A stretch of DNA of 64,000 nucleotides from a virus. Position 1 is the stretch's first letter; every line of letters begins with the position of its first letter. The position numbers and the translations under genes were made by a program. This document shows, piece after piece, positions 2,912-43,391 of this stretch. The stretch lies in IMG/VR virus record IMGVR_UViG_3300018494_000126. One strand, given 5' to 3'. The notes under the pieces were generated by a model, which was not told where the DNA came from, ran no database searches, and saw only the letters and a list, made by a program, of their open reading frames with translations.

Positions 2912-3196
2912 ATGAGAGCTTTTGATTTAGGACAGTTGTATGTTACACGAGGTATAGCCACAGTAATGGAAGAAGGTAATTCTGATTTTAAAAGAGATTT
3001 GTCACAGGCTTTAACACAATATAAAGCATGTGATTGGGGAATTACCTGTACAGATGACCAGCAGTTGAACAACGAAGCAGTCTTAAACGGAGATGATAGA
3101 ATATTAGCAGTTTATCCTACCTGTCGCGGTAATATTTGGATAATTACTGAATGGGACAGAAGTGTTACCACAATATTATTTCCTAATGAATATTAG
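2912..3196 (+). CDS. hypothetical protein
   Basis: 94-aa ORF with AGGAGGATAAATATG ribosome-binding site. Confidence 0.45.
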   Translation: MRAFDLGQLYVTRGIATVMEEGNSDFKRDLSQALTQYKACDWGITCTDDQQLNNEAVLNGDDRILAVYPTCRGNIWIITEWDRSVTTILFPNEY

Positions 3197-3211
3197 AAAA
3201 CGGGAGGATAA

Positions 3212-3724
3212 ATGACAGAACAGCAGAAAGAACTCGTTGTTAATCATCATAATTTAATTTATTTTGTGATTAACAATATGCATTTACCAGAAGAAGAATA
3301 TTATGATATTGTAGCCATTGCTTTGTGTGAAGCAGCAATTAAATATGATGATAGCAAAGGGAAATTTTCTACTTTTGCTGTAAACATGTGTCAGAATGTA
3401 GTTAAAAATCATATTAAGAGTATGTATGGTACAAAAAAACGAGGTGTTTCAGTTTTATTACCTACAGGTGGAGAAATTGATAACTCATCAGTTGTTAAAG
3501 GTAAACATGCTTCTGAATATGATTTTACATCCGATATTTGTGCACGAGAATTTTTAGATTACTTTGTTCAACACAAATTAACAGAACGCGAACAGAAAGT
3601 ATTGACCTATGTATTAAACAGTGTCCCGTATCGTACCATTGGAGAAAAAATGAATATTAGTACAGGCACTGTGGTAAATACGTTAAAATCTGTGCAACGG
3701 AAATATGTACGATGCTGTGCTTAA
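3212..3724 (+). CDS. sigma-70 family RNA polymerase sigma factor (phage-encoded)
   Basis: Region 2 hallmark GKFSTFA; C-terminal region-4-like HTH (YRTIGEKMNISTGTV). Confidence 0.8.
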   Translation: MTEQQKELVVNHHNLIYFVINNMHLPEEEYYDIVAIALCEAAIKYDDSKGKFSTFAVNMCQNVVKNHIKSMYGTKKRGVSVLLPTGGEIDNSSVVKGKHASEYDFTSDICAREFLDYFVQHKLTEREQKVLTYVLNSVPYRTIGEKMNISTGTVVNTLKSVQRKYVRCCA

Positions 3725-3735
3725 TCTAGAAAGGA

Positions 3736-4011
3736 GTGGTAAAGATGAATAATGTAAGACGAAAGGCGATAGATGGGGTAAAAAGGGCGCTTCAGCCGTT
3801 ATTAATAGAATTGTCTATTATTTTAAGTGAAGTTACCGATTTATTTACAGAGGAAGAAGAAGCATTAGAGAATATTCCTGAAAATTTACAGGACACGGAA
3901 AGATATGAACAAACAGAAAACGCAGTAGATTGTTTAGAGATAGTAATTGATACAATTAGTGAATTCTTAGACGCGGACTTAATTGATACTTTAACAGAAG
4001 CTCAAGGCTAA
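3736..4011 (+). CDS. hypothetical acidic protein
   Basis: 91 aa, strongly acidic C-terminal half (EEEEALENIPENLQDTE...). Confidence 0.45.
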   Translation: MVKMNNVRRKAIDGVKRALQPLLIELSIILSEVTDLFTEEEEALENIPENLQDTERYEQTENAVDCLEIVIDTISEFLDADLIDTLTEAQG

Positions 4012-4019
4012 TTAAGGAG

Positions 4020-4259
4020 GTGTTGACAATGAATAAAAAGTTTGTATATTATAGTTATAAAAATCAAGATGGGTTATTATTGTTTATTCCTCTATCTTTA
4101 ATGTGTTTATTATGTAAAGATGGAATTATTGGATTCATTCTTTGTTGGATTATATATGCTGGGTATTGCTGTTTTAATAATTATGAATTATCACAAGACC
4201 CTTATATACAAGAGATAAGAAAAATTGATGCACAGAACCAACAGAGAAAGGGGAAATAA
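4020..4259 (+). CDS. small membrane protein
   Basis: 79 aa with two hydrophobic segments. Confidence 0.4.
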   Translation: MLTMNKKFVYYSYKNQDGLLLFIPLSLMCLLCKDGIIGFILCWIIYAGYCCFNNYELSQDPYIQEIRKIDAQNQQRKGK

Positions 4260-4262
4260 CCT

Positions 4263-5300
4263 ATGAATGGTAGATTTGAAACTCAATTATGTTATCAGGA
4301 TAAAATTGATAAAAAATTAGAAAGTCTGCCTCAATATGTAAAAGATTATTGTTATTCTTTTTCTTATGGTGCTCAAATTAAAACTGCTCATAAATATATT
4401 GGAATAATTGAGAACTTTTATAAAAGTATAAAAGAAGATTCAACCACAGTGACACCAGAAGAAGCAGCACAGAATGTAGCACGTTATATGGTTGCTAAAA
4501 AGACCAAAACGGTTATACAAAATGGTGTTGCTAAAGTTACTCCCACATCAATTTTTTATCAACAGTTAATTTATACTGTATTAAAAAACTTTATGGGGTA
4601 TTTATACTCAAATAAGTTAATCGAAATTAATCCAATAACAGAAATTAAACGTCCAAAAGGAGAAGATAAGGTACAACGGCCTGAGATTACTCCTGATGAA
4701 TTGCAACAAATGTTGGGCGCTGTATTATTTGGGGCTGGTTCTACACGAGCTCGTAAAATTCAGAATAAATGGAAATCAAGAGATTTCTTGATTTTATTAT
4801 TATTTATTTTGACTGGTATGCGTCGTAGTGCGTTAAGCGAAATTAATGTAGAAGATATTAATTTGGAAACGGGAGAATTAACAGTTATTGATAAGGGGCG
4901 AAAAACCCATGTTTATCAAATCAGTTCCATTATGCAATATGTAAATGATTGGTTATATGATAGAGAAGAACTGTTGCGTGAATGGGGTGTTCAGCTGGAT
5001 GCGTTATTTATTTCTCGACAAAAAGCGCGATTATCAACAGATAGTATAGCAGAAATTGTTCATAAATACTCAGAAGCGGTTTTAGGCGAAGGGATTTCAC
5101 CGCATAAAATACGTTATGCATTTGTAACTAATATTATAAAGGAAACTGGAGATATAGAATTTGCACGACGAGCGGTAGGTCATTCTAATATTAGTACTAC
5201 CCAGCGTTATGTAGTTATGAATGATTCTGATGTAAAACAGCGTTCGGCCGATATCATTGTTAAACAAATTCATGATGGTTTTGTCATGGCTAAAGATTAA
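4263..5300 (+). CDS. tyrosine recombinase / integrase (XerC/D-like)
   Basis: Box I TGMRRSAL; box II HKIRYAFVT...GHSNISTTQRYV (R-H-R-Y catalytic signature). Confidence 0.85.
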   Translation: MNGRFETQLCYQDKIDKKLESLPQYVKDYCYSFSYGAQIKTAHKYIGIIENFYKSIKEDSTTVTPEEAAQNVARYMVAKKTKTVIQNGVAKVTPTSIFYQQLIYTVLKNFMGYLYSNKLIEINPITEIKRPKGEDKVQRPEITPDELQQMLGAVLFGAGSTRARKIQNKWKSRDFLILLLFILTGMRRSALSEINVEDINLETGELTVIDKGRKTHVYQISSIMQYVNDWLYDREELLREWGVQLDALFISRQKARLSTDSIAEIVHKYSEAVLGEGISPHKIRYAFVTNIIKETGDIEFARRAVGHSNISTTQRYVVMNDSDVKQRSADIIVKQIHDGFVMAKD

Positions 5301-5367
5301 AAAATATGCTACAATAACAACTAATAGGTAGACTTGAAGCAAGAAAACTAAAGAAGGGAGGAGTTTT

Positions 5368-6300
5368 ATGTACAACGCGGAACGGAAGCAATTATTTATA
5401 CAGTATTTAACTGATTATGATATTCATTATTCTATTAATGTTGTCCATTTTTTAGAAACATTGGAAGAGTTAGAAGTGCAATATGATAAAGATGTATGTT
5501 GTTTTACACAAGATGAAGTCAGAACTATTTATGAAATAGATTTATTAAAAAATAAAACATATGCTACATTGGTTGTTTATTTTTATTTGTTGCGTAAATA
5601 TGGTTTATGGTGTTTAGATATGGAATTTACCACACCAGACAGCGGTTTAATAACGATGCCATTTGCTACGCTTAAAGAAATAAAAGGCCCAGCAGATTAT
5701 ATTACACCAGAAGAATTAACAGAAGCTGCCACAACAGGGTTTCTAAATAAAATAGACCGATTTGTAGTACGCTGTATTTATGAAGGTTTCACTGTTCAAC
5801 AAATTGCTGAATTAACCAAAGATAGTTTACATATTGAAACTAAAGAATTGGTATTGGCAGATGGAACATGTTTAACTATTTCGGATGATTTAGTGGCGTT
5901 AACGCAGGAAGCAATTGCCGAAAAATATTTTCGCAGAGGCCCTACTAAAACAACTCCGCCGATGGATTTCTTATTAGAGGAAAATGAATTTATTGTTCGG
6001 TTTCCTATTACTATGTCTTACAATGAACAATTATTAGACCCAGAATTTAGACATACGAAAATCAAATGGAGGTTATATAATTACGCAAAGCAACAGAAAT
6101 TTGTTATTAAAACCATAGAATTAAAAGATAGTGGTATGATTTGGTCTTTACTGACAGAATCAGAGCGAATAAAGGTGTCTTTATCTCTAGAGAGTAGATA
6201 TAAACATCCTCAAATTCAAAGAATTTTAAATAGATATGGCAGAGGACATTGGAAACCATACCAAGTATTTCGTAAATTAAAAGAATATGACGTTGTATAG
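5368..6300 (+). CDS. hypothetical protein (no recombinase catalytic motifs)
   Basis: 310-aa ORF directly downstream of the recombinase; no RHRY residues. Confidence 0.5.
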   Translation: MYNAERKQLFIQYLTDYDIHYSINVVHFLETLEELEVQYDKDVCCFTQDEVRTIYEIDLLKNKTYATLVVYFYLLRKYGLWCLDMEFTTPDSGLITMPFATLKEIKGPADYITPEELTEAATTGFLNKIDRFVVRCIYEGFTVQQIAELTKDSLHIETKELVLADGTCLTISDDLVALTQEAIAEKYFRRGPTKTTPPMDFLLEENEFIVRFPITMSYNEQLLDPEFRHTKIKWRLYNYAKQQKFVIKTIELKDSGMIWSLLTESERIKVSLSLESRYKHPQIQRILNRYGRGHWKPYQVFRKLKEYDVV

Positions 6301-15953: not shown

Positions 15954-16082
15954 GTAAATGTAAGATGTATGAGACAGAAAGTTTTGGCACATCTTAAATA
16001 CCTCCTTTCTTTAATTCATTTCTTTAAACTTTATATAAGTTATGTTAGGGTTGCGGCTAACAATAAAAAACGCAAATAATTT

Positions 16083-16154
16083 TCCCCTTTATCCAAGCGG
16101 TTAAGGAACTCGGCTTTGACCCGAGGAGCGCTGGTTCGAATCCAGCAAGGGGAG
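16083..16154 (+). tRNA. tRNA-Gln (anticodon TTG)
   Basis: Manual fold: acceptor TCCCCTT/AAGGGGA, D-loop with GG, anticodon stem CTCGG/CCGAG, loop CTTTGAC, T-arm GCTGG-TTCGAAT-CCAGC, discriminator G. Confidence 0.8.
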
Positions 16155-16219
16155 TAAGGAATTGTATTCCATATTATTAACTATTAATCATTAAATTTTA
16201 TTAAAAAGGAGAACGAGCT

Positions 16220-19146: not shown

Positions 19147-21609
19147 ATGAGTTATTTTAGTATACACAACCACACAGACCGAGATAGTAATTTGCGTATA
19201 CGTGATTCAATTAACAAGGTATCAGATATTATCCAATATGCACATGATATAGGTTTAAAAGGAATTTGCCTAACAGGACATGAATCAGTCACTTCTAGCT
19301 TATCGGCAATAGAATATTTCTATAGCCATAAAGATAATCCAGAATGGGTAGATTTTAAAATAGGTTTGGGAAATGAAATCTATTTATGCACTCGTGATGT
19401 AACACCAGAAAATAAGAAAGGACAGAAATATCCGCACTTTATATTACTGGCTTTAGATTCTTTTGGACATAAGGGTATTAGAGAATTAAGTACACAATCA
19501 TGGTTAAACAATGCTTTTATGAATGTTATGATGCGTGTACCAACATATTATGACGAATTAGAAACTATGTTGGAGACATATAAAGGTCATATTATCGGTT
19601 CTTCTGCTTGCTTGGGAGGTATTTTACCTGCCAAAATATTGGAATTTGAAGCCACAAAAGACCCCGAATTATGGGGCGCATGTATTAGTTGGGTTGAATA
19701 TATGAATGAAATTTTTGGACAAGGTTATTTCTTTTTGGAATTACAACCTTCGCCTAAAATGGAACAGATTATAGTTAATCAATATCTAATTCGCTTATCT
19801 GAAATCACAAACACGCCTTATATTATCAGCACGGATTCCCATTACTTAAAGAAAGAAGATAGAAAATTCCACAAAATCTTTTTAGAAAGTCAGGACGGAG
19901 ATAGAGAAGTTGATGATTTTTATGAAACAACTTATGTGATGACTTCGGAAGAAATTCATGACTTTATGGATGCTTATATAGGGAAAGAAGCGGTACAAAG
20001 AGGTCTGGATAATACTTTATTGATTTATGATATGGTGCAAATATATGACCTGCGCAAACCGATGCGTATTCCGTATGTACCATTTAATTCATCTGAACCA
20101 GACCCATCTTTATTCAAAAAATATCAACCATTGATTCCTCATTTGGATTATTTCTTCCTTTCTGAATATGAGCCAGATAGACATTTGTGTAGAGAAATCG
20201 TGAATGAACTGGAAAGAAAGCCAAAAGAACTTTGCAACACAGAAACTTATGAGGCAATTGCAGAATGTTTGGATTCATTAATTATTGCTTCGGATAAGAT
20301 GAAAGTACGTTGGTCGGCCTATTTATTAGATGTTAAAGATATTGTAGAACTCTTATGGGAAGTATCATTAGTAGGATGTGGCCGAGGTTCTGGTGTAGGA
20401 TTTATTCTAAATTATATATTAAATATTACACAGATTAACCCTTTAAAAGAAAAAACGAAAACATTTCACTGGAGATTTTTAAATCCCGAACGTGCGTCGC
20501 CATTAGATATTGATGTAGATATTGAGGGTTCTAAACGAGAAGCGGTTATGCGAAAATTCCGTGACACTTATGGTGCAGATAGAATTAGTAAAGTTATGAC
20601 GTTATCTACCGAAAAACCACGTAGTGCTATTTTAACCAGTGCTAGAGGATTGGGTATAGATAATGATACGGCACAGTATATATCTTCATTAATTGTAGCA
20701 GATAGAGGACAATTACGTTCCTTTAAACAGATGTATTTTGGAGATGAAGATAACCGCCCTGTAATGGAATTTGTTCGTGAAATGGAAAGATACCCTGAAT
20801 TATGGGAGTGTGCACAGAAGTTTGAAGGTTTGGTAAATGGGGTAGGTTCTCATGCTGGGGGCATTATTTTAACAGATGAACCATTTACAGAAGTAGCAGC
20901 ACAGATGAAAACCAATTCAGGAGATATTATTACTCAATTTGATTTACATGAATGTGAAAAATTATCATTAATTAAATTCGACTGTCTGTCTGTAGAAGCA
21001 CTCGACAAGATTCATGCTTGTATGAATTTACTATTAGAGGATGGTGTTATTGAGTGGCAAGGAACTCTCAAAGATACTTATGAAAAGTATTTAGGTATAT
21101 ATACTTTAGAACGTGATGCAGAAGAAATGTGGAAATTACTGTGGGAACATAAAGTATTAAGCTTTTTCCAGATGGAGAAGGCTTCGGGGATTCAAGCCAT
21201 TTCGTTATCAAAACCACATTCAGTAGATGATTTAGCAGCTTTAAACTCAGTTATGAGACTTATGGCACAAGAAAAGGGTGGGGAAGCACCGCTTGAGAAG
21301 TATGCTAGATTTAAAAATGATATTAATTTATGGTATCAGGAAATGTCTAGTATGGGACTTACAGAGGAAGAACAAGATATATTAAAGGATATTTTAGGTA
21401 TTTCCTATGGTATTTGTGAAGCGCAGGAATACTTATTTCTGTTAGTTATGCATCCTAAGATTGGTGGTTTTTCATTAGCATGGGCAGACAAGTTGAGAAA
21501 ATCTGTAGCGAAGAAGTCTCCAAAAGATTTTGAAATATTACAGCAGGAATTTTTACAAAACGCAAAAGAAAAACAATTATCAAATAAATTAATTCGTTAT
21601 GTGTGGTTT
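19147..21609 (+). CDS. dnaE: DNA polymerase III alpha (DnaE-type), exon 1
   Basis: N-terminal PHP domain (HNHTDRDS...); last residues align to E. coli DnaE ...KQRSVF...IFDLVEKF just upstream of GYGFNKSH; exon end approximate. Confidence 0.8.
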
Positions 21610-21933
21610 GTATTAATTTTCATGCAACGTGGGTAAACAAACCTGCTCACGTAAAATTCGGTGAACGTATGCAAAAACGGTGTGTAACATTTTTGTTATG
21701 CTAACGGTGAAAGCCTAAGTCGTAAGATAAGGTAATACCGTGCCAAGCCTTATACATAAGGAAGGTGTAACGACTATTACGTACATCTGAGATTAGCACA
21801 GATGGAAGTGCCGAATAGAGTATTTTACTCTAAAGATATAGTCTAATCCCTATAGAAATACCGAGAAATCGGGGGTATAAATGATGGATTTAATCGTTCT
21901 CATTGTCTTGCTTACAGTTTATTGGGATTGCAG
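21610..21933 (+). mobile_element. group I intron in dnaE (no ORF)
   Basis: Untranslatable ~320-nt gap inside a conserved DnaE motif. Contains the group I S-element-like AAGATATAGTC preceded by GACTA, and a 5' motif (GTAAAATTCGGTGAAC) shared with the nrdD intron. Boundaries approximate: U before 5' site, G at 21933. Confidence 0.6.
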
Positions 21934-23310
21934 GAACTGAATTTATGTTATAAATATGGTTCAATCTATTGGTCTGCGGCCAATTTGGTTGTAGATTCTG
22001 GGTCATATAATGAAGATGCAAACGATGGAACTAACTATGGAAAAATGTCTACGGCTATTGCTTCAATTAAACAGAGTGGTACAGAAGTAGCTTTACCACT
22101 TATTAATGAAGCGGATTTTGGTTTTAAAGTGGATAAACAAAATAATCGTATCTTATTCAGTCTTAAAGCAATCAATGGAATCGGAACAGAAGCAGTACAA
22201 ACAATTCTAGAGCACCGACCATATAATTCATTTCAAGATTTCTGTGACAAACTTATCGTCACCAAATTACTCACAAATGCACAAATGATTAAGTTAATCA
22301 AAGGCGGTAGTTTTACCGAACTACACAATACAGACCGTACTAAAACTATGCGGTTATATTTAGAAAATTATGTGTTTAAACCATGTGATAATCTCACCAT
22401 GTCTCAAATGGGTAAAATGGTTGAAATGAAAATGATTCCTGATGAGTTTGACATTATTATACGTATTCTGAACTTTAAAGATTATGTTTTACATCCAGAT
22501 GGGTTAGATAGATTATATGTAAACCCAGATAAAAAAGTTCCGAAGTGCGGTTATCATGACAGATATTTTCTATTAGATAGCAATTCTCAATCATTTTTCG
22601 TGGCTAATTTCTCCGAAGATGCAGTAATTGAAGTGAAGAATTCGTATTATGTTATCTCTGAAAAGAACTTCTTGAAAGAAGTCGAAACCAAATTAAAAAC
22701 GTTTAGAGATTGGATGAGTAAAGAAGAAACACTAAACTTATACAATCAAAAACTATTTAATGAATTATGGGAGAAACACGCTTCTGGTACAGTACCTCAT
22801 TGGAATATGGAAGCATTAAGCTATTATGATGCGGAACATGAGTTAGACGGGGTAGATGAAAAGCATTATGGAATTGTCAATTACTTTGATTTACCAGAAG
22901 AACCAGAACCTTATGAGTGGTACACCCGTCGTATTAACGGAGAACCACGAGCGTTTCCTAAATATAAAATTAGCCGTTTGGCTGGAACAGTATTAGCGAA
23001 TGATAATAATCATCATTCATTTACTTTATTGACTAGATATGGAGTAGTAACAGTAAAAACAAATAAGGGAGCTTATGCTTATTATAACAAAACCATATCT
23101 CAGGTATCAGAAGAGAATGGTAAAAAGAAAAGATTGGAAGAAAGTTGGTTAAAACGAGGAACGCTTTTATTATGTCATGGTATGAGAATGGGAGACCAAT
23201 TCTTCTTAAAAGTGTATAACGATTCGATTTTTAATCACACCATTAACAAAATTGTAGAAGTTACGGATGAAAAGGAATTAATTGTACAAGCAGAGCGACT
23301 TCAAATCTAG
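21934..23310 (+). CDS. dnaE: DNA polymerase III alpha (DnaE-type), exon 2
   Basis: ...SIYWSAANLVVD... aligns to GYGFNKSHSAAYALV; (HhH)2 / OB-fold-like C-terminal region; same reading frame modulo 3 as exon 1. Confidence 0.75.
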   Translation, partial: ELNLCYKYGSIYWSAANLVVDSGSYNEDANDGTNYGKMSTAIASIKQSGTEVALPLINEADFGFKVDKQNNRILFSLKAINGIGTEAVQTILEHRPYNSFQDFCDKLIVTKLLTNAQMIKLIKGGSFTELHNTDRTKTMRLYLENYVFKPCDNLTMSQMGKMVEMKMIPDEFDIIIRILNFKDYVLHPDGLDRLYVNPDKKVPKCGYHDRYFLLDSNSQSFFVANFSEDAVIEVKNSYYVISEKNFLKEVETKLKTFRDWMSKEETLNLYNQKLFNELWEKHASGTVPHWNMEALSYYDAEHELDGVDEKHYGIVNYFDLPEEPEPYEWYTRRINGEPRAFPKYKISRLAGTVLANDNNHHSFTLLTRYGVVTVKTNKGAYAYYNKTISQVSEENGKKKRLEESWLKRGTLLLCHGMRMGDQFFLKVYNDSIFNHTINKIVEVTDEKELIVQAERLQI

Positions 23311-26840: not shown

Positions 26841-28043
26841 ATGAGGATTATTAAAAAAGATGGCACATTAGAAGATTATAATGAACAAAAAATAATTAAT
26901 GCTTGTAATAAAGCTGCTAGACGAGCAATGGTAGAATTAAATGCTAATGATTATCAGTTGATTTGTAACGCCGTCTGGGAAAAACTCGTTGAAAATGATT
27001 TAGAAGAAACTGAAATTTATGAAATGCATAATATCGTTGAAGCCGTATTGGAAGAATTATATCCAATAGTGGGGAAAATGTATAAAGAATATAGAAATTA
27101 TAAAAAAGACTTTGTTCATATGATGGATAAAGTATACGCCAGAAGTCAAGCAATTAGATACATTGGTGATAAGAGTAATGCTAATACTGATTCTGCTTTG
27201 GTGGCAACAAAGAGAAGTTTAATTTATAACGAACTGAGCAGTGAATTATATAAGAAGTTTTTCTTAACACTTGATGAAAAGCAAGCAATGAAAGATGGGT
27301 ACATCTATATCCATGATAGGAGTGCTAGACTTGATTCCTTTAATTGCTGTTTGATGCGTGTAGGCCATATTATGCATAACGGTTTTGAAATGGGGAACGT
27401 TTGGTATAACGAGCCTAATTCACTTGATACTGCATTCGATGTTATGGGAGATATTATCCTTTCAACAGCTGCACAGCAATACGGAGGGTTTACTGTACCA
27501 GAAGTTGATAAGATTTTAGCACCTTATGCAGAGAAGTCTTATAGAAAATATATTGAAGAATATAGAAAAGTTGAAAATGATGTATTAAGTCAAGTGTCTT
27601 GGAATGGTCGAGTTAAAGACGAAGGAGCTATAAAATATGCTCTTGATAAAGTCAGAAGAGACTTTGAACAAGGTTGGCAAGGCATTGAATATAAGTTAAA
27701 TACAGTTGGTTCTTCTAGGGGCGATTACCCATTCGTTACCATGACTATAGGATTAGCAACAGATATATTTGGCAAAATGGCCGCTATTACTTTACTCCAA
27801 GTACATAGTGAGGGCCAAGGTAAGAAAGGATTTAAGCGTCCTGTTTTATTCCCTAAGATTGTATTCTTATATGATAAAGAACTTCACGGAGATGGTTCTG
27901 AACAGTATCCAAATGCAGATGTATTTAATGCAGGAATTGATTGTAGTAGTAAAACCATGTATCCTGATTGGTTATCTTTAACTGGTAATGGATATGTACC
28001 TGAAATGTATAAGAAATATAAAAGAGTGATTAGTCCAATGGGT
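26841..28043 (+). CDS. nrdD: anaerobic ribonucleoside-triphosphate reductase NrdD, exon 1
   Basis: N-terminal ATP-cone (MRIIKKDGTLEDYNEQKIINA), class III RNR core, ends ...YKRVISPMG. Confidence 0.8.
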
Positions 28044-28943
28044 TAATATGATAGCTCATGTAAAACTCGGTGAACTTATATATATAAGGTGTCAATTCAA
28101 CGAATAGTAACCATAGGAAATGATGGCTAATGAATTGGCTAACAGGGGAAGTCATTATTATGATAATCCTGTGCTAATATTCAACGTATTCACTTTTAAA
28201 GAAGGTGAATTTTATATAGAAACAATAATTATAAATAAAGAAATTCAAGGTTTTGAGAGATATCGAATCAACATTAACGGTGTGATTTATGATACTAAAC
28301 GAAACAAAGAAATTGGTCAGTGGATAGATACCGTTGGGTATTACCAATGTGTTTTAAGAGATTCAAATGGTAAGAAATGTTATAAACGTGTACATAGGTT
28401 GGTCGCCAATACGTTTATTCCTAATCCAAATAATCTACCACAAGTCAATCATAAAGATGGAAATAAGTTAAATAATAATATAGATAACTTAGAGTGGTGT
28501 ACAAATAGTGATAACACCCAACATGGTTATGATAACAAATTATATAAATATAAGTCAAGATGTCATGCGATAAACGTCTATTATAAGAAAAATGGTAAAT
28601 ATTTTAAAACTTATAAATCTATAAGAAGTATGTGTGAAGATTTACATATTAATAGAAAGACAGTAACCATGATATTAAAAGATGAAAAATTAACTAATAA
28701 TTATGATTATTTATTTGAATACGTTGAAGAAAGTCAAGAGACTATCGAAAGCATAGCATAAGAGAAAAACTTATGCGAAGAAGCGAGTAGAGTACATATA
28801 AGGTGAAAGTCCTTATGTGGAAGTGCCGAGCATCTATTATTTGGTAATAGAATAATAGATGAAGATATAGTCCAAACTGCGAAAGCAGTTAGTGTCGTGC
28901 ATTCCTTTCTCCATGGTATGAAAGAGGTGGAATGCATCCTGCG
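28044..28943 (+). mobile_element. group I intron in nrdD carrying an HNH homing endonuclease ORF
   Basis: 5' end CATGTAAAACTCGGTGAACTTAT is homologous to the dnaE intron 5' end; 3' part has GGAAGTGCCGAG and the S-like AAGATATAGTCC; interrupts an otherwise continuous NrdD; boundaries approximate. Confidence 0.6.
28120..28761 (+). CDS. HNH homing endonuclease (intron-encoded)
   Basis: VHRLVANTF...NHKDGNKLNNNIDNLEWCT..NTQHG HNH_3-type motif plus NUMOD-like regions; lies inside the nrdD intron. Confidence 0.8.
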   Translation: MMANELANRGSHYYDNPVLIFNVFTFKEGEFYIETIIINKEIQGFERYRININGVIYDTKRNKEIGQWIDTVGYYQCVLRDSNGKKCYKRVHRLVANTFIPNPNNLPQVNHKDGNKLNNNIDNLEWCTNSDNTQHGYDNKLYKYKSRCHAINVYYKKNGKYFKTYKSIRSMCEDLHINRKTVTMILKDEKLTNNYDYLFEYVEESQETIESIA

Positions 28944-36781: not shown

Positions 36782-37049
36782 AAAATATCGTTTAGATAGA
36801 ATAGAAGAATTTAATCGTCCTAACCCGTTATATCTTGATTTGGCTGGATGTACATGTTATTTGGCTTATTTCAATGTGGGTGAAAGAGGTTGGTTTTTAT
36901 ATCAGACTAATAACTGTTTAGATGACATGCATAGAATACATACTTCTACAGTTTGTGATGTGGTTTATTTAGACAACTGGCCTGCTAATCAAATAGTAGT
37001 AACCACTAAGAACACAAAATTCACTTTTACACAGATTGTGGAGGAATAA
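36771..37049 (+). CDS. hypothetical protein
   Basis: 92-aa ORF overlapping the upstream stop. Confidence 0.4.
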   Translation: MYSKKYRLDRIEEFNRPNPLYLDLAGCTCYLAYFNVGERGWFLYQTNNCLDDMHRIHTSTVCDVVYLDNWPANQIVVTTKNTKFTFTQIVEE

Positions 37050-37397
37050 ATGGTAAGAGTATATACAGAAGAATGGAATGGTTTTCAATTCAGAGCACCC
37101 ACATATTTAGATGGTCATTTTGAACCGTTTAAATTTGATTTGATTAAATGGGAAGACCATATACCACATGAAGTTACAGATTTTTATACTGGCGAAAAAC
37201 GAATAAGCTACAGACATTGTTTCACTATAGCAACTTTAACTTGGAATTCAAAAGAATACGGATTTGAATTTGAGAGTTGTGGTTTACGTTATTTAGAGCA
37301 TCGAGTTGACGGATTAGAAGAATTTATATTGGATTTTTGCGAAATGATGAAACAGTCGTTAAGAGGGACGGAGGATTATATTTATGAAAAAAATTAA
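37050..37397 (+). CDS. hypothetical protein
   Basis: 115-aa ORF. Confidence 0.4.
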   Translation: MVRVYTEEWNGFQFRAPTYLDGHFEPFKFDLIKWEDHIPHEVTDFYTGEKRISYRHCFTIATLTWNSKEYGFEFESCGLRYLEHRVDGLEEFILDFCEMMKQSLRGTEDYIYEKN

Positions 37398-37779
37398 TAA
37401 TAAAACAATTGGTTGGTATCTATTACGTTGGGGCGGGTTCTTACTTTATATGATTTGCTCAGGTGTAGTACTAAGTCGTACAGATATAGTAACATATGCT
37501 TATGCTGTTGGGGCGGGCATCGGAACTCTATTTTTTGGTATGAGTGAAATAATTGAAGATAGAAAAATGAGGATAAAAAACATGAATCTAACAGCAGAAC
37601 AGGCGCGCGCAATACAAAATGATAACAAGCGTTTTTATTATTGTTTCAATTCAGAAGATGGACTAGAAGAATTAGGTATTATAATTGGTGTCAATCATCC
37701 TTTATATGAAGAACTTAATAAAAAAATTGATTGTTATAATTATAGAGGAAAGAAAAATGAAAAAACGAGACAGATATAA
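37384..37779 (+). CDS. membrane protein
   Basis: N-terminal TM segments. Confidence 0.4.
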   Translation: MKKINNKTIGWYLLRWGGFLLYMICSGVVLSRTDIVTYAYAVGAGIGTLFFGMSEIIEDRKMRIKNMNLTAEQARAIQNDNKRFYYCFNSEDGLEELGIIIGVNHPLYEELNKKIDCYNYRGKKNEKTRQI

Positions 37780-37856
37780 ACTCTTGAACCACGCTAAAGA
37801 AGATTATTCACAACGGGTTTGGTTTAATGTCTATACACAGAAAAGAGGTGATTATT

Positions 37857-38624
37857 ATGTCTATTTGGGTAACGGGAGATATACATGGTAACCCCGTTAG
37901 ATTTAGTACAGATAATTTTTATGAACAAAAGGGGTTTAGCGGCAATAAAGATGAAAATGTAGTCATTATTCTTGGTGATTTTGGAATTATATGGCACAGA
38001 GAAGAAACCAGACAGGAAAAATATTTGTTAGATTGGTTAGAAGAAAAACCGTTTACCACTATTTTTGTAGATGGTAATCATGACAATATCCCTCGTTTAG
38101 ACACATTCCCAATTAAAGAATGGAATGGGGGATTGGTTAATGAACTACGTCCTCACGTTTTACGATTAAGAAGAGGGGAAATATTTACAATAGAAGATAA
38201 AAAATTCTTTGCTTTTGGCGGTGCAAGTTCTCACGATATTTCAGACGGTATTCTTGATTATGAAGATGAAGATTGGAGAGATAAAGCAAAGGCATTAGAT
38301 AAGCAAGGTAAATATATGTATCAAATTAAAGGATTGTCTTGGTGGGAGCACGAACTTCCTTCAGAAGAAGAAATGCAGAATGGGTGGAATAATTTAAGAA
38401 AACATAATTATAAGGTTGATTATATTATTACACATAGCCCTTCTGCTAGTGTAATTGCACTATTGGGTCATGGTTTATATAACCAAGATATATTAACTAC
38501 ATATTTAGAGGAAGTGCGACAAAAGACAGAGTTTAATAAACACCTATGTGGACATATGCATATTAATTATGTTGTAAACGATAAAGATATTCTTCTATAT
38601 GAACAGATTAGTAGAATTAATTAA
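37857..38624 (+). CDS. Ser/Thr-phosphatase-like metallophosphoesterase (second paralog)
   Basis: GDIHG, GDFGIIW, GNHD motifs (PP-lambda-like); start taken at the ATG after AGAGGTG. Confidence 0.75.
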   Translation: MSIWVTGDIHGNPVRFSTDNFYEQKGFSGNKDENVVIILGDFGIIWHREETRQEKYLLDWLEEKPFTTIFVDGNHDNIPRLDTFPIKEWNGGLVNELRPHVLRLRRGEIFTIEDKKFFAFGGASSHDISDGILDYEDEDWRDKAKALDKQGKYMYQIKGLSWWEHELPSEEEMQNGWNNLRKHNYKVDYIITHSPSASVIALLGHGLYNQDILTTYLEEVRQKTEFNKHLCGHMHINYVVNDKDILLYEQISRIN

Positions 38625-38633
38625 TATATTGCC

Positions 38634-38816
38634 TTGGAGGTACAGATGACACCTAGTAAATGTAATATGGCATATCATAGATATTGCCGCAAAGCTTCAT
38701 TAGGCTATTGTAACGCTAGTGAGATAGAATTAGAACATTGTCCATATTTACAAGCAATTAAAGAAATTGCACGATTGTCAATCCAAATACCTGATAAAGA
38801 GGAGGAAATTAGATGA
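38634..38816 (+). CDS. Cys-rich small protein
   Basis: CNMAYHRYC...CNASEIELEHC. Confidence 0.35.
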   Translation: MEVQMTPSKCNMAYHRYCRKASLGYCNASEIELEHCPYLQAIKEIARLSIQIPDKEEEIR

Positions 38817-39358
38817 ATTCATTAAGATTTGTACAACAACGAATACATTCTCCCAATTATACTTATCAATTGACTGATGATTATAATATACATTCATTAC
38901 CCTTTTTTGAAATGGCACAGAATTTTTTACCGAACAAAGTGATTACAAGGTATCAAGATACTCATGAGATAATTGTTACAGTACCTGAAGGAGAAATGAT
39001 GAATGAAGTAGGAGAACTGCTTCATCTTACCAATTATAATATTCATCTCAAATATGACCCCGATGCAGATTTTGAGTATGTAACTTCTGAACGCATTACA
39101 CATGATGGTACAGCAACATTTGTTATTTATCTTTATTCTAAAGTTCTGAATAATATCTTATTTGGTCAAACTCATGACCGCACAAAAATTCCAGAAGATT
39201 TTTATAACAATATAAATGATTATAAGATTGAGATTGTTCATGGCGATTTTGTACAGATAACTGAACATGGCGCTTTTGGCGATACAACTAAACCTTGGCT
39301 ACATGCACGCGATACGGTATTATTACCCGTTATTTGGAATTGTTACAAGATAAAATAA
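38813..39358 (+). CDS. hypothetical protein
   Basis: 181-aa ORF. Confidence 0.5.
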   Translation: MNSLRFVQQRIHSPNYTYQLTDDYNIHSLPFFEMAQNFLPNKVITRYQDTHEIIVTVPEGEMMNEVGELLHLTNYNIHLKYDPDADFEYVTSERITHDGTATFVIYLYSKVLNNILFGQTHDRTKIPEDFYNNINDYKIEIVHGDFVQITEHGAFGDTTKPWLHARDTVLLPVIWNCYKIK

Positions 39359-39409
39359 TTCTAAATTTAACTAAGTGCAAAATAAAATTGAAGCAACTAC
39401 AAAAAAATA

Positions 39410-39439
39410 TTGCACAACATAGAAATAAAATTGTATAAT
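39410..39439 (+). promoter_or_regulatory. sigma70-type promoter (TTGCAC, 18 bp spacer, TGTATAAT)
   Basis: ATTGCACAACATAGAAATAAAATTGTATAATG upstream of the Crh-like gene. Confidence 0.5.
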
Positions 39440-39485
39440 GTAGTCGAATGAACTACTAAACTATGTTGAGAGAGGAGAACAAATT

Positions 39486-39734
39486 ATGAAAAATACAGTT
39501 ACTTTATATTTAAACAAAATTTCTGATATTCAGGAATTTGCTAATATTATTACTTCTTTTGCAGAAAAAGCTTTTATTACTCGTAATGGTAAAACTTTTG
39601 ATGCTAAATCAATTTTAGGTGTTATTTTATTAGGTGGTAAAGAGCCAGTAGAAGTAACATTAGATTCTGACGATGAGACAGTATTAGAAAGATTTAACTC
39701 ACAGTTACAGCCATTTTTCTATAAGGAGAAATAA
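39486..39734 (+). CDS. HPr/Crh-like phosphocarrier-fold protein (Gln at the His15 position, Ser46 region conserved)
   Basis: NGKTFDAKSILGVILLGGKEPVEVTLDSDDE aligns to HPr [33 protein letters not shown]; N-terminal ISDIQEFA corresponds to Crh GLQARPA, not HPr GIHARPA. Confidence 0.6.
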   Translation: MKNTVTLYLNKISDIQEFANIITSFAEKAFITRNGKTFDAKSILGVILLGGKEPVEVTLDSDDETVLERFNSQLQPFFYKEK

Positions 39735-39735
39735 G

Positions 39736-40281
39736 ATGAAAAAAATATTTTGTGTAATGGGAAGAAGCAGTAGTGGGAAGTCCACCTTGTCAAAAGAAGC
39801 AGCTAAACAGTTAGGTTTAACCATTCTTACTTCTTATACCACACGACCTCCTAGACCAGCCGAACTGGACGGTGAAACAGACCATATTTTTATTACCGAA
39901 GATGAAGTAGATAAATATCGAGATGATATTATGGCATACACCGTTATTAATGGTTATCAATATTTTTGTACATACTCTCAATTAATGGAGTGCGATATCT
40001 ACATTATTGACCCTAATGGTTATTACGAACTTAGTGAGAAAACAAAAGAATTAGATATTGAATTAATACCTATTTATATCACAGTAAGTAAAACTAAAGG
40101 AATTGAACGGGCTAAAAAAAGAAAAGATAATATTGATTCTTACTTACAACGCTATGAATCAGAAAACCAGCAATTTACCGAATTTGAAAAAAGTAACTTG
40201 ATTTGGTACAGGATTTTAAATCATGGCACTTTAGAAGAAGGAGTAGAACGTCTGGTACGAATTATTGATAAGGAGAGGTAA
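39736..40281 (+). CDS. guanylate-kinase-like P-loop kinase
   Basis: Walker A GRSSSGKST plus the SYTTRPPRPAE..G.DHIFI guanylate kinase signature; start overlaps the stop of the Crh-like gene. Confidence 0.7.
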   Translation: MKKIFCVMGRSSSGKSTLSKEAAKQLGLTILTSYTTRPPRPAELDGETDHIFITEDEVDKYRDDIMAYTVINGYQYFCTYSQLMECDIYIIDPNGYYELSEKTKELDIELIPIYITVSKTKGIERAKKRKDNIDSYLQRYESENQQFTEFEKSNLIWYRILNHGTLEEGVERLVRIIDKER

Positions 40282-40283
40282 CT

Positions 40284-40622
40284 ATGAGTAAAGGAACAAA
40301 TGAAAGTGGTACATGTGTTTCATGTGGTTATTACACAAAAACCGATTATTTAAGTCCAAAATGTGCGAATTGTCGCATGATGATAGGTTATAAAGGTGAC
40401 AATGATAATTATGAACCCCAACCAGAATCTGATAGATGGTATGCACCCTATATACCAACAGAAGCGGGATATTATGATATTACGTATTTAAACATTAATA
40501 CACAAGATATATCATATGGCACTCTATATTGGGGTGATGAGGGATGGGCATATTCAGAATTTGATGCGACTCCACTACCCGACCATATAATCATACGTAG
40601 TTTTCAAATAAAAAAAGAGTAA
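40284..40622 (+). CDS. hypothetical protein
   Basis: 112 aa, N-terminal CVSCG...C.NC. Confidence 0.45.
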   Translation: MSKGTNESGTCVSCGYYTKTDYLSPKCANCRMMIGYKGDNDNYEPQPESDRWYAPYIPTEAGYYDITYLNINTQDISYGTLYWGDEGWAYSEFDATPLPDHIIIRSFQIKKE

Positions 40623-40646
40623 ATTTATGTATCAAAGGAGGCCTGA

Positions 40647-41357
40647 ATGAGCATAAGTAGATATTTACCAACACTTCAATTAAATGAAAAAATGTATAAA
40701 ATATTGAATATTATTCTTCTTCAGGTGTTCTGGATACAATTAATTTTACGTTTTGTATTTACTCCTGTAGATATTTTACCGCATATTTCTACTTATCCGA
40801 TAGTGCAAACACGAACAGTAGAACAGTTACCGACTTTACAGGAGCTTAAACAAGTTCAAGCACAGAAAAAAATTCAAGAGTTTAATGAGTTAATTACATC
40901 ACTAGAATCAATTAAAGAATATGATAGACAAGCATATATTTTAGCATATAAAAAAGCATATCGAGACTATGATGAGTATGTTATGCCGTTTCATTCTGTC
41001 TATGATGAATATACAGATGAAGAGATTGAGTTATTCCAAAGAGCGGTAGAGACAGAAACACATGACGGCGATTTTGATTCTAAAGTTAATGTGGCCAATG
41101 TTATATTAAATAGAGTTGCTAATACAGAATTTTCGGATATTAATGGCTCTTTGAGTAAAGTTATCACTCGTAAGAATCAGTTTGCTTATCATCGTACTGA
41201 AATCGATTATTCTACAGTGTTAGCAATTGAATATGCTTTTTTATTTGAAGATACTACTGATGGTGCTTTATGGTTTGATACTGGTTTAAATAGTTGGGCT
41301 AAACGTAATAGAACATTTGTGTTTAAAGATGATATAGGACATGTGTTTTATAAATAG
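40647..41357 (+). CDS. SleB/CwlJ-like cell wall hydrolase domain protein
   Basis: C-terminal VANVILNRV...KNQF motif of the Hydrolase_2 (SleB) family; N-terminal TM segment. Confidence 0.65.
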   Translation: MSISRYLPTLQLNEKMYKILNIILLQVFWIQLILRFVFTPVDILPHISTYPIVQTRTVEQLPTLQELKQVQAQKKIQEFNELITSLESIKEYDRQAYILAYKKAYRDYDEYVMPFHSVYDEYTDEEIELFQRAVETETHDGDFDSKVNVANVILNRVANTEFSDINGSLSKVITRKNQFAYHRTEIDYSTVLAIEYAFLFEDTTDGALWFDTGLNSWAKRNRTFVFKDDIGHVFYK

Positions 41358-41562
41358 GAGTGTGATAGATATACAACGCATATTAAAGAGTAAGGAAGTA
41401 AAAGAATATTTAGGTATTGCTTCTGATAAAACACTATATAAATTATTAAATACGAAGGGGTTTCCTCAATTTAAGATTGGAAGAGATTATTATATCCCAG
41501 AAGATGATTTAATAGATTGGATAAGTAAAAATGCTAAAATGAATACGAAGATAATAATTTAG
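41341..41562 (+). CDS. xis: excisionase/AlpA-like HTH DNA-binding protein
   Basis: KEVKEYLGIASDKTLYKLLNTKGFPQFKIGRDYYIPEDDLIDWI matches the excisionase-family HTH_17 pattern. Confidence 0.6.
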   Translation: MCFINRSVIDIQRILKSKEVKEYLGIASDKTLYKLLNTKGFPQFKIGRDYYIPEDDLIDWISKNAKMNTKIII

Positions 41563-41590
41563 GGAAGATTGCATATCTTCCCTATTTTTA
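41562..41590 (+). terminator. rho-independent terminator
   Basis: GGGAAGAT-TGCAT-ATCTTCCC followed by TATTTTTA. Confidence 0.5.
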
Positions 41591-41591
41591 A

Positions 41592-41664
41592 AGCTGATGA
41601 CGGGAATCGAACCCGTGACCTCTTCACTACCAATGAAGTGCGCTACCGACTGTGCCACATCAGC
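41592..41664 (-). tRNA. tRNA-Thr (anticodon GGT)
   Basis: Reverse-complement folds as acceptor GCTGATG/CATCAGC, D-loop AGTCGGTA, anticodon stem CTTCA/TGAAG, loop TTGGTAG, T-arm ACGGG-TTCGATT-CCCGT; one A-C mismatch in D-stem. Confidence 0.75.
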
Positions 41665-41679
41665 ATATTAAGTTTCTAG

Positions 41680-41701
41680 TCTGTGTAAAAATCTGTGTAA
41701 A
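41680..41701 (+). repeat. tandem direct repeats ATCTGTGTAAA (attP arm-type-site candidates)
   Basis: GTCTGTGTAAAAATCTGTGTAAA read directly; same motif recurs at 41899-41931. Confidence 0.5.
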
Positions 41702-41865
41702 TTTTTTGAAAGAGGCTTCAAAGCCAGTGTTTATAGGCGTTTCAAAAATATAACAATAGCACTACCAATGCGTAAGACAATTTTTTAATATCTTATCAAA
41801 AAGTCTCGAAAGTGCCGTGTTTTCGGCGTTTTCGGGGCTTTTTATATTTTTCTCAATTATGTATT

Positions 41866-41931
41866 TTTAGGTATTTATAGGTATTCTTAGGTATCCTAAT
41901 CTGTGTAAAATTATGGAAAATCTGTGTAAAA
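41866..41931 (+). repeat. phased direct repeats (3x TAGGTAT at 10-bp spacing, 2x ATCTGTGTAAAA) upstream of the integrase
   Basis: TTTTTAGGTATTTATAGGTATTCTTAGGTATCCTAATCTGTGTAAAATTATGGAAAATCTGTGTAAAA. Confidence 0.5.
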
Positions 41932-41993
41932 TTGTTGAGTAATTTTTTGCCATATGTTATCCTTATATAAAGCACAAATAAGGAGGGATTCTT

Positions 41994-43391
41994 ATGGCTA
42001 AAAGAAAAAACGGAGAAGGTAATTGGGGTACTCGTACAATTAATGGTGTTCAATATAAATACTATAGAAAGTATTATGATTGGAAAGATGATTATCACAC
42101 ATTCTATGGTAAAACAGAAAAAGAAATTAATCAAAAGAGAGAACAGTTTGAATTAGTAAATAAGGATAAGCATAAATTCGATGCTAAGAATGTTAAGCAG
42201 GAAACATTCTATCATTATTGCAAGCATTGGATAGAAGATATAAAACCTAATGATGGTTCAGATACAAAACAAGTAACTATTGATTCGTATGCAGATATGT
42301 TAGACAATCGAATTAAAGATACATTTCTGGGTAATACTCAAATTGCTTCATTAAGCGAAGATATTTTCCAAGATTATATAGATGATTATTGTGTAAAGCA
42401 AAAAGAATATTCGAGAGGTACAATTAAAAGAACGCAATCGTTATTAAATCAGATTTGCGAGTATATGTATGAAACAGATAAGTATGCTCCATGTAATTAT
42501 ATGGAAGACATCATCATTCCTTCTGAAAAGAACGTAAAAACCAAAAGGCGTAAAGTACCATTCTTAGAAGAATCAGATATGTTAAAACTCTATGATGAGT
42601 TTCAAAAAATGCATAGTACTGGTAGAAACAAATATGGACTAAATGCTCATATGGTTATATTTATCATGTATACTGGTTTGCGTATATCTGAGGCTCTTGC
42701 ACTTAAATGGAAGGATGTTAATTTAGACCTAAACATCATTACAATAACGCACGTTATTGCAAAAATAAGAAATCCAAAGGGTGATAAACCCAAACATATT
42801 TATGTAGATACAGATGGTACTAAAACATATTCTAGCGAGCGCAGCATTCCATTATCAGACATTGCTTTATTAATTCTTAAAGGTTTATGGAAAAACCAAG
42901 ACCCTAATTATTATGTTTTCACTGAGGATGGGGTTACAATTAGCAATCATAGTAATGTTACACGCACTTTAAACCTTATGCAAAAGAATGCAAATTGCAA
43001 GATAAAGAAAAGTGGATTACATTCTTTAAGACACACATTTGGTTCTTATTTGATACTTAAAGGCGTTGATATTAAGACTGTCAGTGAGTTATTAGGACAC
43101 TCTAGTATAGAAATTACGTTAAATATATATGTTCATATTATTAATGCTCAAAAAGCATCTGCTATCAAATTATTTAACAATGTTCAAAAGCAAGTAAATA
43201 CTACTCCTATAGGAGTAGTAGAATCATTGAGCAAAATGGGTATTTCACTAATAGAGATAGAAGAAGGAATGCTTGGCTATATTGAAAATGGAAAACTTGT
43301 TAAGCTTCCTATAAATAAAACTCTTGCAATTAATGATATTATAATTAACAATATAGACATATATAATGAATATTACAAAAGCGAGGAATAG
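41994..43391 (+). CDS. int: tyrosine integrase (large phage-type, N-terminal arm-binding domain)
   Basis: Box I YTGLRISEALAL; box II LHSLRHTFGSYL...LLGHSSIEITLNIYVH. Confidence 0.85.
   Translation: MAKRKNGEGNWGTRTINGVQYKYYRKYYDWKDDYHTFYGKTEKEINQKREQFELVNKDKHKFDAKNVKQETFYHYCKHWIEDIKPNDGSDTKQVTIDSYADMLDNRIKDTFLGNTQIASLSEDIFQDYIDDYCVKQKEYSRGTIKRTQSLLNQICEYMYETDKYAPCNYMEDIIIPSEKNVKTKRRKVPFLEESDMLKLYDEFQKMHSTGRNKYGLNAHMVIFIMYTGLRISEALALKWKDVNLDLNIITITHVIAKIRNPKGDKPKHIYVDTDGTKTYSSERSIPLSDIALLILKGLWKNQDPNYYVFTEDGVTISNHSNVTRTLNLMQKNANCKIKKSGLHSLRHTFGSYLILKGVDIKTVSELLGHSSIEITLNIYVHIINAQKASAIKLFNNVQKQVNTTPIGVVESLSKMGISLIEIEEGMLGYIENGKLVKLPINKTLAINDIIINNIDIYNEYYKSEE

Follow-up and report, generated by a model that had tools for sequence, protein, structure and literature searches.

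Carbon and energy control in the Firmicutes has its central switch in HPr(Ser-P) signalling, which proceeds through the serine-phosphorylated form of the small protein HPr. His15 of HPr is located just before its first helix (PMC8509676), and the second site, Ser46, is phosphorylated in Firmicutes by the kinase/phosphorylase of HPr (HprK/P), an enzyme that reports the levels of ATP and fructose-1,6-bisphosphate (PMC10287919). Crh of Bacillus subtilis has the same fold, a similar size and the conserved Ser46 site, and has no function in the phosphotransferase system (PTS) as it is without His15. Here we describe a phage-borne relative of these proteins, an 82-residue polypeptide encoded in the IMG/VR virus record IMGVR_UViG_3300018494_000126, of which the whole 64,000-nucleotide stretch that was analysed is hereafter called the window. 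Its gene is the first of five tightly packed genes, and the second encodes a guanylate-kinase-like (GK-like) P-loop kinase. A first-pass annotation had read the 82-residue protein as a Crh; we find that it is neither a phosphocarrier nor a Crh, and that it represents a third kind of HPr-family protein, which keeps just the serine site.

The window protein matches the Pfam PTS-HPr domain (PF00381) with 23.0 bits, which is exactly the gathering cut-off (23), and falls below the cut-offs of both the HPr model TIGR01003 (30.6 against 47.9 bits) and the NCBIfam Crh equivalog NF010354 (21.2 against 123 bits). Its best sequence matches in the PDB are B. subtilis Crh and HPr, at E-values of 0.0035-0.03. 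While a word-index homology search with the protein matched itself alone, phmmer run exhaustively against 1.84 billion representatives recovered 57 relatives at E <= 1e-3, mostly of 75-82 residues, all of which match PF00381 (best 2e-14) and share an invariant Lys41 and Ser42. A profile of these relatives detects Crh in the PDB at 6e-13 and reaches 3,472 protein clusters, of which those that bear a name are entries for "HPr family phosphocarrier protein" in Oscillospiraceae, Ruminococcaceae and other Clostridia. In the reverse direction, a profile built from 16 bacterial members only recovers the window protein with 46.6 bits (E 1.6e-16) across residues 4-79, the N-terminal part being ungapped. 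The hallmarks of this short family are likewise present, namely a beta1-alpha1 loop shorter by three residues, an N-terminus of the form L-N-x-I-x-D-[VI]-K-x-F and the D-A-K-S motif. Judged from these sequence comparisons, membership of the window protein in the short HPr-like family is solid and lies far beyond chance. A PHROG scan gave no match for the window protein at E <= 0.01 and single weak matches for two of the 57 relatives (E 0.0021 and 0.0095), and neither megablast of positions 37000-42000 nor tblastn of the 82-residue protein matched any of 50,697 phage records. Separately, the family-profile search is topped, at 143-155 bits, by double-length proteins of 155-160 residues from Oscillospiraceae and metagenomes (P0004, P0058-P0061); P0004 has two stretches matched to the profile, and these proteins look like tandem duplications of the short HPr-like domain.

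Structure prediction gave the open-faced beta-sandwich of HPr. A single-sequence AlphaFold model (predicted local distance difference test score, pLDDT, 79.5) has the topology beta-alpha-beta-beta-alpha-beta-alpha, and the top 38 Foldseek matches to it in the PDB are all HPr or Crh, with template-modelling (TM) scores of about 0.6. When an alignment of 110 sequences was supplied, the model reached a pLDDT of 89.4 and a predicted TM score of 0.77. These models show that the 82-residue protein adopts, as predicted, the HPr fold.

The departure from HPr and Crh is concentrated in the histidine loop. Sequence alignments place residue x of the window protein opposite residue x+4 of HPr or Crh from residue 16 onwards; given this offset of four, Ser42 is the counterpart of Ser46, and Gln16 corresponds to residue 20 rather than 15. 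Hence the glutamine that had been taken for the Crh hallmark at the His15 position does not lie there. The AlphaFold model has strand 1 up to residue 7 and helix 1 over residues 12-23, which leaves a connecting loop of four residues, with Lys11 immediately before the helix, as against the seven-residue beta1-alpha1 loop of HPr. We aligned 158 family members with B. subtilis HPr, B. subtilis Crh and E. coli HPr, the Crh reference agreeing with the PDB alignment over residues 20-84, and found the whole family to be without HPr positions 13-15 (G-I-H or G-L-Q), with N, S, D or E at position 17 and Asp at position 18. The window protein has Ser at position 17, with Arg17 absent, and contains no histidine anywhere. 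Since there is no histidine and the loop that bears His15 is deleted, a PTS phosphocarrier role is impossible; PEP (phosphoenolpyruvate)-dependent phosphotransfer thus separates the window protein from HPr (PtsH), with which it shares the PF00381 domain, the open-faced beta-sandwich and the Ser46 motif. Crh differs from it in turn by a full-length active-site loop with both Gln15 and Arg17, and by not being borne on a phage within a nucleotide-metabolism module. The Crh identity accordingly falls with the loop, the two residues and the equivalog score.

The serine site, in contrast to the histidine loop, is strictly conserved in the family as D-A-K-S-I-[LM]-G. In the 158-member alignment K45 occurs in 157 and S46 in all 158, and I47, M/L48 and G49 are also kept. 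The window protein reads DAKSILG (K41-S42-I43-L44-G45), which bears out the first-pass observation that the Ser46 region is retained, and matches, as a regular expression, the PROSITE-type serine signature. Ser42 lies just before the helix at residues 43-47 in the AlphaFold model.

The bacterial side of the family is large. With family-specific peptide patterns, at least 596 species-level genomes of Clostridia proved to carry the gene; gut and rumen samples are the source of many of them, and Anaerotruncus colihominis, A. massiliensis and Pseudobacteroides cellulosolvens are included. These short proteins, annotated as "HPr family phosphocarrier protein" in A. colihominis, P. cellulosolvens and many Oscillospiraceae metagenome-assembled genomes, share with the window protein the shortened beta1-alpha1 loop, the DAKS motif and the length, and differ from it in being about 30-35% identical and chromosomally encoded. 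Among 56 bacterial loci with the open reading frame (ORF) called, the gene is divergent from an MtaB-like radical-SAM methylthiotransferase in 43, with the latter lying about 0.2-1.5 kb upstream (L032-L111). The downstream neighbours vary across the 56, the recurrent ones being a TadA-like deaminase (10), a DD-carboxypeptidase (7) and DUF4364 (6); a GK-like or Hydrolase_2 gene is never the neighbour.

Phage homologues surfaced only when a bacterial family member served as the tblastn query. This search found the gene in the Enterocloster bolteae phages PMBT24, CB457P1/P2 and CB473P1-3 and on four human-gut phage scaffolds. UniProt holds the phage entries A0A8S5S213 and A0A8S5S9E0, and three viral HPr-like models are present in BFVD, of which the best is A0A8S5S213 (TM 0.85). 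The deposited genes belong to the same short family and are phage-borne like that of the window, from which their sequences have diverged such that tblastn with the window protein finds none of them. The PMBT24 copy (WDQ45469.1), annotated "phosphocarrier protein HPr", follows, after 13 nt, the gene of a Hydrolase_2 protein that bears the name "spore cortex-lytic enzyme precursor", and is without an adjacent GK-like gene; the paper on PMBT24 does not mention the HPr-like gene (PMC11035940). A scan of IMG/VR gave 63 HPr-like loci, mostly on contigs of 90-210 kb. The HPr-like proteins of the 73 phage loci in total form 33 clusters at 60% identity. Most phage copies are nearer to other phage copies than to bacterial ones, which implies that the gene has long been resident in phages. 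Many of them retain the full bacterial consensus (GRYVVDAKSIMGIFSLDL).

A recurrent feature of the phage loci, seen in many large phages of gut Clostridia, is the company of a GK-like gene within a nucleotide-metabolism module. Of the 73 phage loci, 43, from about 10 clusters, have such a gene at no more than 5 kb from the HPr-like one. The orders vary, with GK-x-HPr (gaps of 156-190 nt), HPr-GK (gaps of 1 and 27 nt) and HPr-ThyX-GK all being found, and the surrounding module comprises an NAD-ligase, an NT5C nucleotidase, ThyX, dUTPase and NrdD/NrdG. Spacing is tight in three lineages: the window itself (a 1-nt gap), L018 (27 nt) and L187, in which the last base of the HPr-like ORF is the first base of the GK-like ORF. 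Scanning from the kinase side across 80 IMG/VR loci of the GK-like clade to which the window kinase belongs, we found an HPr-like ORF within 6 kb in 67, at distances from 0 to about 3.4 kb, and nearly always in five of the six kinase clusters formed at 70% identity (35/37, 22/23, 8/8, 1/1 and 1/1); shared ancestry of related phages inflates these linkage counts. The pattern suggests a linkage that is strong and tolerant of rearrangement, with the HPr-like gene itself being dispensable.

Some further features of the phage loci deserve record. In certain phages the HPr-like gene occurs in two different versions, which are placed in tandem or separated by a few kb (Table 1). At L025 (IMG/VR UViG_3300031853_003381), a 283-residue ORF that by eye looks like a flagellin (3179-4030) stands directly downstream of the HPr-like gene, with a 420-residue ORF upstream. 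In one large phage clade (L112-L138), the GK-like gene is preceded, some 1.0-1.4 kb before the HPr-like gene, by that of a conserved 209-residue protein whose N-terminus contains a hydrophobic segment. This protein yielded no Pfam or PDB sequence match, and the resemblance to a 3D-domain wall hydrolase that its appearance suggested is, with both searches empty, not claimed.

The kinase of the window passes the Pfam Guanylate_kin model (PF00625), whose cut-off is 25.2, with 33.7 bits, matches phrog_1815 at E 1.9e-36, and possesses the P-loop GRSSSGKS, the motif SYTTRPPRP (S-x-TTR-x-x-R) and the lid arginines, so the guanylate kinase signature noted in the first pass is confirmed. All these it shares with Gmk. 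It differs from Gmk in that its similarity to the solved guanylate kinases of the PDB is weak (E 1.5e-5) and in that the guanine-recognising Glu aligns, in the PDB alignments, to Ala67 (..IMAYT..), an Ala that is invariant in the phage clade. The Glu in question is the equivalent of yeast Glu69, which recognises guanine in guanylate kinase structures. On its sequence the enzyme is best described as a putative GK-fold kinase of (deoxy)nucleoside monophosphates, (d)NMPs, with uncertain base specificity, and is most simply read as a (d)NMP kinase whose base specificity has probably been altered.

Taking these observations together, we favour, with about even confidence, the reading that the phage carries a copy of the Clostridial short HPr-like subfamily which acts as a serine-switched regulatory protein and is co-expressed with a phage nucleotide kinase. 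Phosphorylation of Ser42 would switch the surface with which this small regulator binds; the enzyme responsible would most probably be the HPr kinase/phosphorylase of the host, the sensor of ATP and fructose-1,6-bisphosphate. Through the regulator the phage could couple to, or override, the energy signal of the host during infection. The leading candidate for the regulator's target would be the co-encoded atypical NMP kinase or the nucleotide module at large, followed by the partners of the host's own short HPr-like protein, with CcpA less likely. There is precedent in E. coli, where adenylate kinase, an enzyme of the NMP-kinase fold, is among those that HPr binds and regulates (PMC13324651). 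A functional tie between the adjacent kinase and the HPr-like protein gains indirect support from their being paired in most of the related phages.

Several findings weigh against this regulatory reading. The beta1-alpha1 turn, which is a partner-recognition element in HPr, is shortened, so that recognition by HprK/P is not assured. The window protein departs from the near-invariant bacterial consensus at R39, Y40, F51, S52, D54 and L55 (HPr numbering). The sixth kinase cluster has no HPr-like gene at any of its 10 loci, its module being otherwise the same, and 23 of the 33 phage HPr-like clusters are without a nearby GK-like gene; the pairing is thus not obligatory and could in part be inherited synteny among related phages. 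Bacterial members were never found beside a GK-like gene across the 80 genomes examined, from which it follows that the pairing with the kinase is a phage innovation.

Of the alternatives, that of the first-pass annotation comes first: a phage mimic of Crh or HPr(Ser-P), phosphorylated by HprK/P, that binds CcpA and thereby imposes or titrates carbon catabolite repression. The machinery for such repression is general in Firmicutes, and Crh provides the best PDB sequence matches. CcpA contacts Ser46-P, Ile47, Met48 and Met51 of HPr, along with helix 1 and the beta1-alpha1 turn (PMC10287919). On the helix-2 side the window protein keeps these contacts as Ser46, Ile47, Leu at 48 and Ile at 51, and near the serine (NGKTFDAKSILGVILLGG) it is closer to canonical HPr than the family consensus is. 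Nevertheless, neither Gln15/His15 nor Arg17 is present, and the turn, itself a part of the interface, has lost three residues throughout the family. The truncated turn and the loss of Arg17 therefore weaken the case for CcpA mimicry, despite the kept helix-2 hydrophobics and serine. Further, the Crh equivalog score lies far under its cut-off, the window has no excess of cre (catabolite-responsive element)-like sites (one against 0.55 expected, and that one inside an ORF), and the gene context is nucleotide metabolism rather than sugar catabolism. We consider this alternative unlikely.

A rather improbable variant is that the protein is a decoy or sponge, which soaks up the host kinase/phosphorylase and so shifts the Ser-phosphorylation of the host's HPr or short HPr-like protein, with no onward signal of its own. 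This would accord with the pattern of conservation in the clade of the window, where only the DAKSI[LM]G core and a few hydrophobic positions persist and other family-invariant surface residues are changed, and with the good expression that is likely for the first gene of a unit with a strong Shine-Dalgarno sequence. The case is purely inferential, however; the full bacterial consensus seen in many phage copies argues for retained binding of a partner, and the two different copies in some phages also speak against it.

One may also imagine that the two adjacent proteins form a phage-autonomous phospho-signalling pair, in which the kinase phosphorylates Ser42 or is itself switched by the Ser42-phosphorylated protein, independently of the host's HprK/P and CcpA. 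We regard this as a long shot; if true, the large phages of gut Clostridia would possess their own HPr(Ser)-type switch on nucleotide synthesis and possibly on the SleB-type wall hydrolase. The narrower proposal that the GK-like enzyme is the dedicated kinase, or the phospho-dependent binding partner, of the HPr-like protein is to us distinctly improbable. It draws on the rearrangement-tolerant linkage (67/80 loci) and the tight spacing in three lineages, and on the fact that a clade without the guanine-binding Glu (Ala67) yet with the P-loop and lid arginines leaves the substrate open. As opposed to this, the NMP-phosphate-binding S-x-T-T-R-x-x-R is kept and the neighbours are NT5C, ThyX, NrdDG and dUTPase, making a nucleotide the simpler substrate; the kinase occurs in one clade that has no HPr-like protein, and most HPr-like clusters are without it. 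To our knowledge, no enzyme of the guanylate-kinase fold phosphorylates proteins.

The recurrent cell-wall hydrolase suggests yet another partner, such that the HPr-like protein would serve not carbon or nucleotide control but, for example, envelope remodelling or the manipulation of sporulation or germination. In four independent phage clusters, one of them that of the cultured PMBT24, a Hydrolase_2 gene directly precedes the HPr-like gene, at gaps of 3, 13, 22 and 45 nt; in a fifth it stands 234 nt upstream, and in the window and L018 it is downstream. The hydrolases, though, bear signal or anchor sequences that mark them as extracytoplasmic, the HPr-like protein has none, no link between HPr and such hydrolases is known, and most HPr-like loci are without the hydrolase. 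We rate this reading as very unlikely. Finally, a small-molecule-binding domain of the NiaR 3H type in place of a phospho-regulated HPr is scarcely credible and was ruled out, as the similarity is to PF00381 and centred on the Ser46 site, and the three defining ligand/metal-binding histidines are absent from a protein that has no histidine.

With the preferred reading remaining that of a serine-switched regulator co-expressed with the kinase, we turn to the unit that carries both genes (Table 1). The five genes, for the HPr-like protein, the GK-like kinase, a 112-residue protein, a SleB-type hydrolase and a helix-turn-helix (HTH) protein, follow one another with gaps of 1, 2 and 24 nt and then a 17-nt overlap. 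The stop of the HPr-like gene does not overlap the kinase start, as had been supposed: a single base separates the TAA (39732-39734) from the ATG (39736-39738; TAA-G-ATG), and the ribosome-binding site of the kinase, AAGGAG, lies inside the 3' end of the HPr-like ORF. This spacing is close enough that the two could be translationally coupled. The 112-residue ORF has no Pfam or PHROG match. The promoter claimed for 39410-39439 survives in part: a site with 10 of 12 consensus matches is there and is among the two best in 38600-41700 (the second being on the minus strand), but the 22 promoter-like sites of that interval do not exceed the 19 +/- 4.8 seen in shuffles. We consider a promoter at this position plausible.

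Table 1. Features of the five-gene unit (window coordinates), followed by the phage loci that carry a second HPr-like copy (coordinates within each locus)
Feature	Position	Strand	Remarks
Promoter-like site	39411..39439	+	TGCACA, 17-nt spacer, TATAAT; 10/12 matches; inside the 127-nt gap 5' of the HPr-like ORF
Shine-Dalgarno sequence GAGAGGAG	39470..39477	+	8 nt before the ATG; read from sequence
Histidine-less short HPr-like protein, 82 aa	39486..39734	+	ATG start; Ser42 = HPr Ser46
Atypical guanylate-kinase-like P-loop NMP kinase (putative), 181 aa	39736..40281	+	PF00625, phrog_1815
112-aa ORF with Cys-rich N-terminus	40284..40622	+	called as a gene on all related contigs
SleB-type cell-wall hydrolase (Hydrolase_2), 236 aa	40647..41357	+	PF07486, 40.5 bits; hydrophobic N-terminal segment
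HTH_17 (excisionase-like) DNA-binding protein, 73 aa	41341..41562	+	PF12728 on the identical gene in L001
Intrinsic-terminator-like hairpin	41560..41584	+	10-bp stem, then T run; ends the five-gene unit
Second-copy HPr-like locus L144	5001-5488		
Second-copy HPr-like locus L146	about 5000-5491		
Second-copy HPr-like loci L145/L147	1728-1964 + 4751-4999		
Second-copy HPr-like locus L143	122-400 + 1878-2174		

That the window is phage DNA, as first annotated, holds: its genes specify helicases of the DnaB-like and the RecD/Dda-like type, a primase, a polymerase and an exonuclease, together with NrdD, a tail-fibre protein and an endolysin. The exact 82-residue protein recurs on at least 24 metagenome contigs that represent one and the same phage of ~131-139 kb with an identical gene order. 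The polymerase is 37-40% identical to those of Geobacillus phage GR1 and the SPbeta group (YorL), and the nearest cultured-phage polymerases (Geobacillus, Leuconostoc, Bacillus SPbeta) reach just 37-40% identity. From the distribution of the HPr-like family, the anaerobic NrdD, the SleB-type hydrolase and the low G+C content (~32%), we infer a host among the Clostridia.

The window also holds a group I catalytic intron at 21643-21865 on the plus strand (Rfam RF00028, 62.5 bits, E 1.8e-13), which separates the ORFs 19147-21636 and 21922-23310. As these two jointly span a single SPbeta YorL-like DNA polymerase profile, the polymerase gene is split by the intron. The NrdD-like ORF (26841-28046, 401 residues) covers positions 4-392 of a 718-position PHROG profile; NrdD may thus be a split gene, with the rest of the anaerobic reductase in neighbouring ORFs, and in this context Rfam gave no second intron. 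A complete tRNA-Thr (GGT) on the minus strand at 41592-41664 lies between the terminator of the five-gene unit and a tyrosine integrase gene (41994-43391); this tRNA may be one of the phage's own or have a connection with the attachment site. Positions 16082-16155 contain a tRNA-Gln (TTG). The region is flanked by a gene for a PARG-like protein (poly-ADP-ribose glycohydrolase, PF10021; 33305-34093) and one for Ku (PF02735; 45047-45754), the two Pfam assignments being those made on the identical contig L001.

To call this gene the first phage Crh mimic would be inaccurate, since it belongs to a known superfamily of which phage copies are already in databases. The first-pass statement that no phage Crh mimic had been described stands for the literature, where our search found no functional study of phage HPr-like genes, of the loop-deleted family or of the pairing with the kinase; it does not stand for GenBank, UniProt and IMG/VR, where such phage genes are deposited. 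The novelty lies in a variant that has lost the loop, has kept the serine alone and differs from HPr as well as from Crh, which forms a very large and unstudied family in the Clostridia, and which phages repeatedly retain beside an atypical GK-like kinase and nucleotide-synthesis genes, often with a SleB-type hydrolase. A cultured system exists in Enterocloster bolteae with PMBT24 or the CB457/CB473 phages. Should the serine become phosphorylated in the course of infection, the variant would offer phages a way to read or override the energy signal of their host, and would also provide a handle on the role of the host's own short HPr-like protein.

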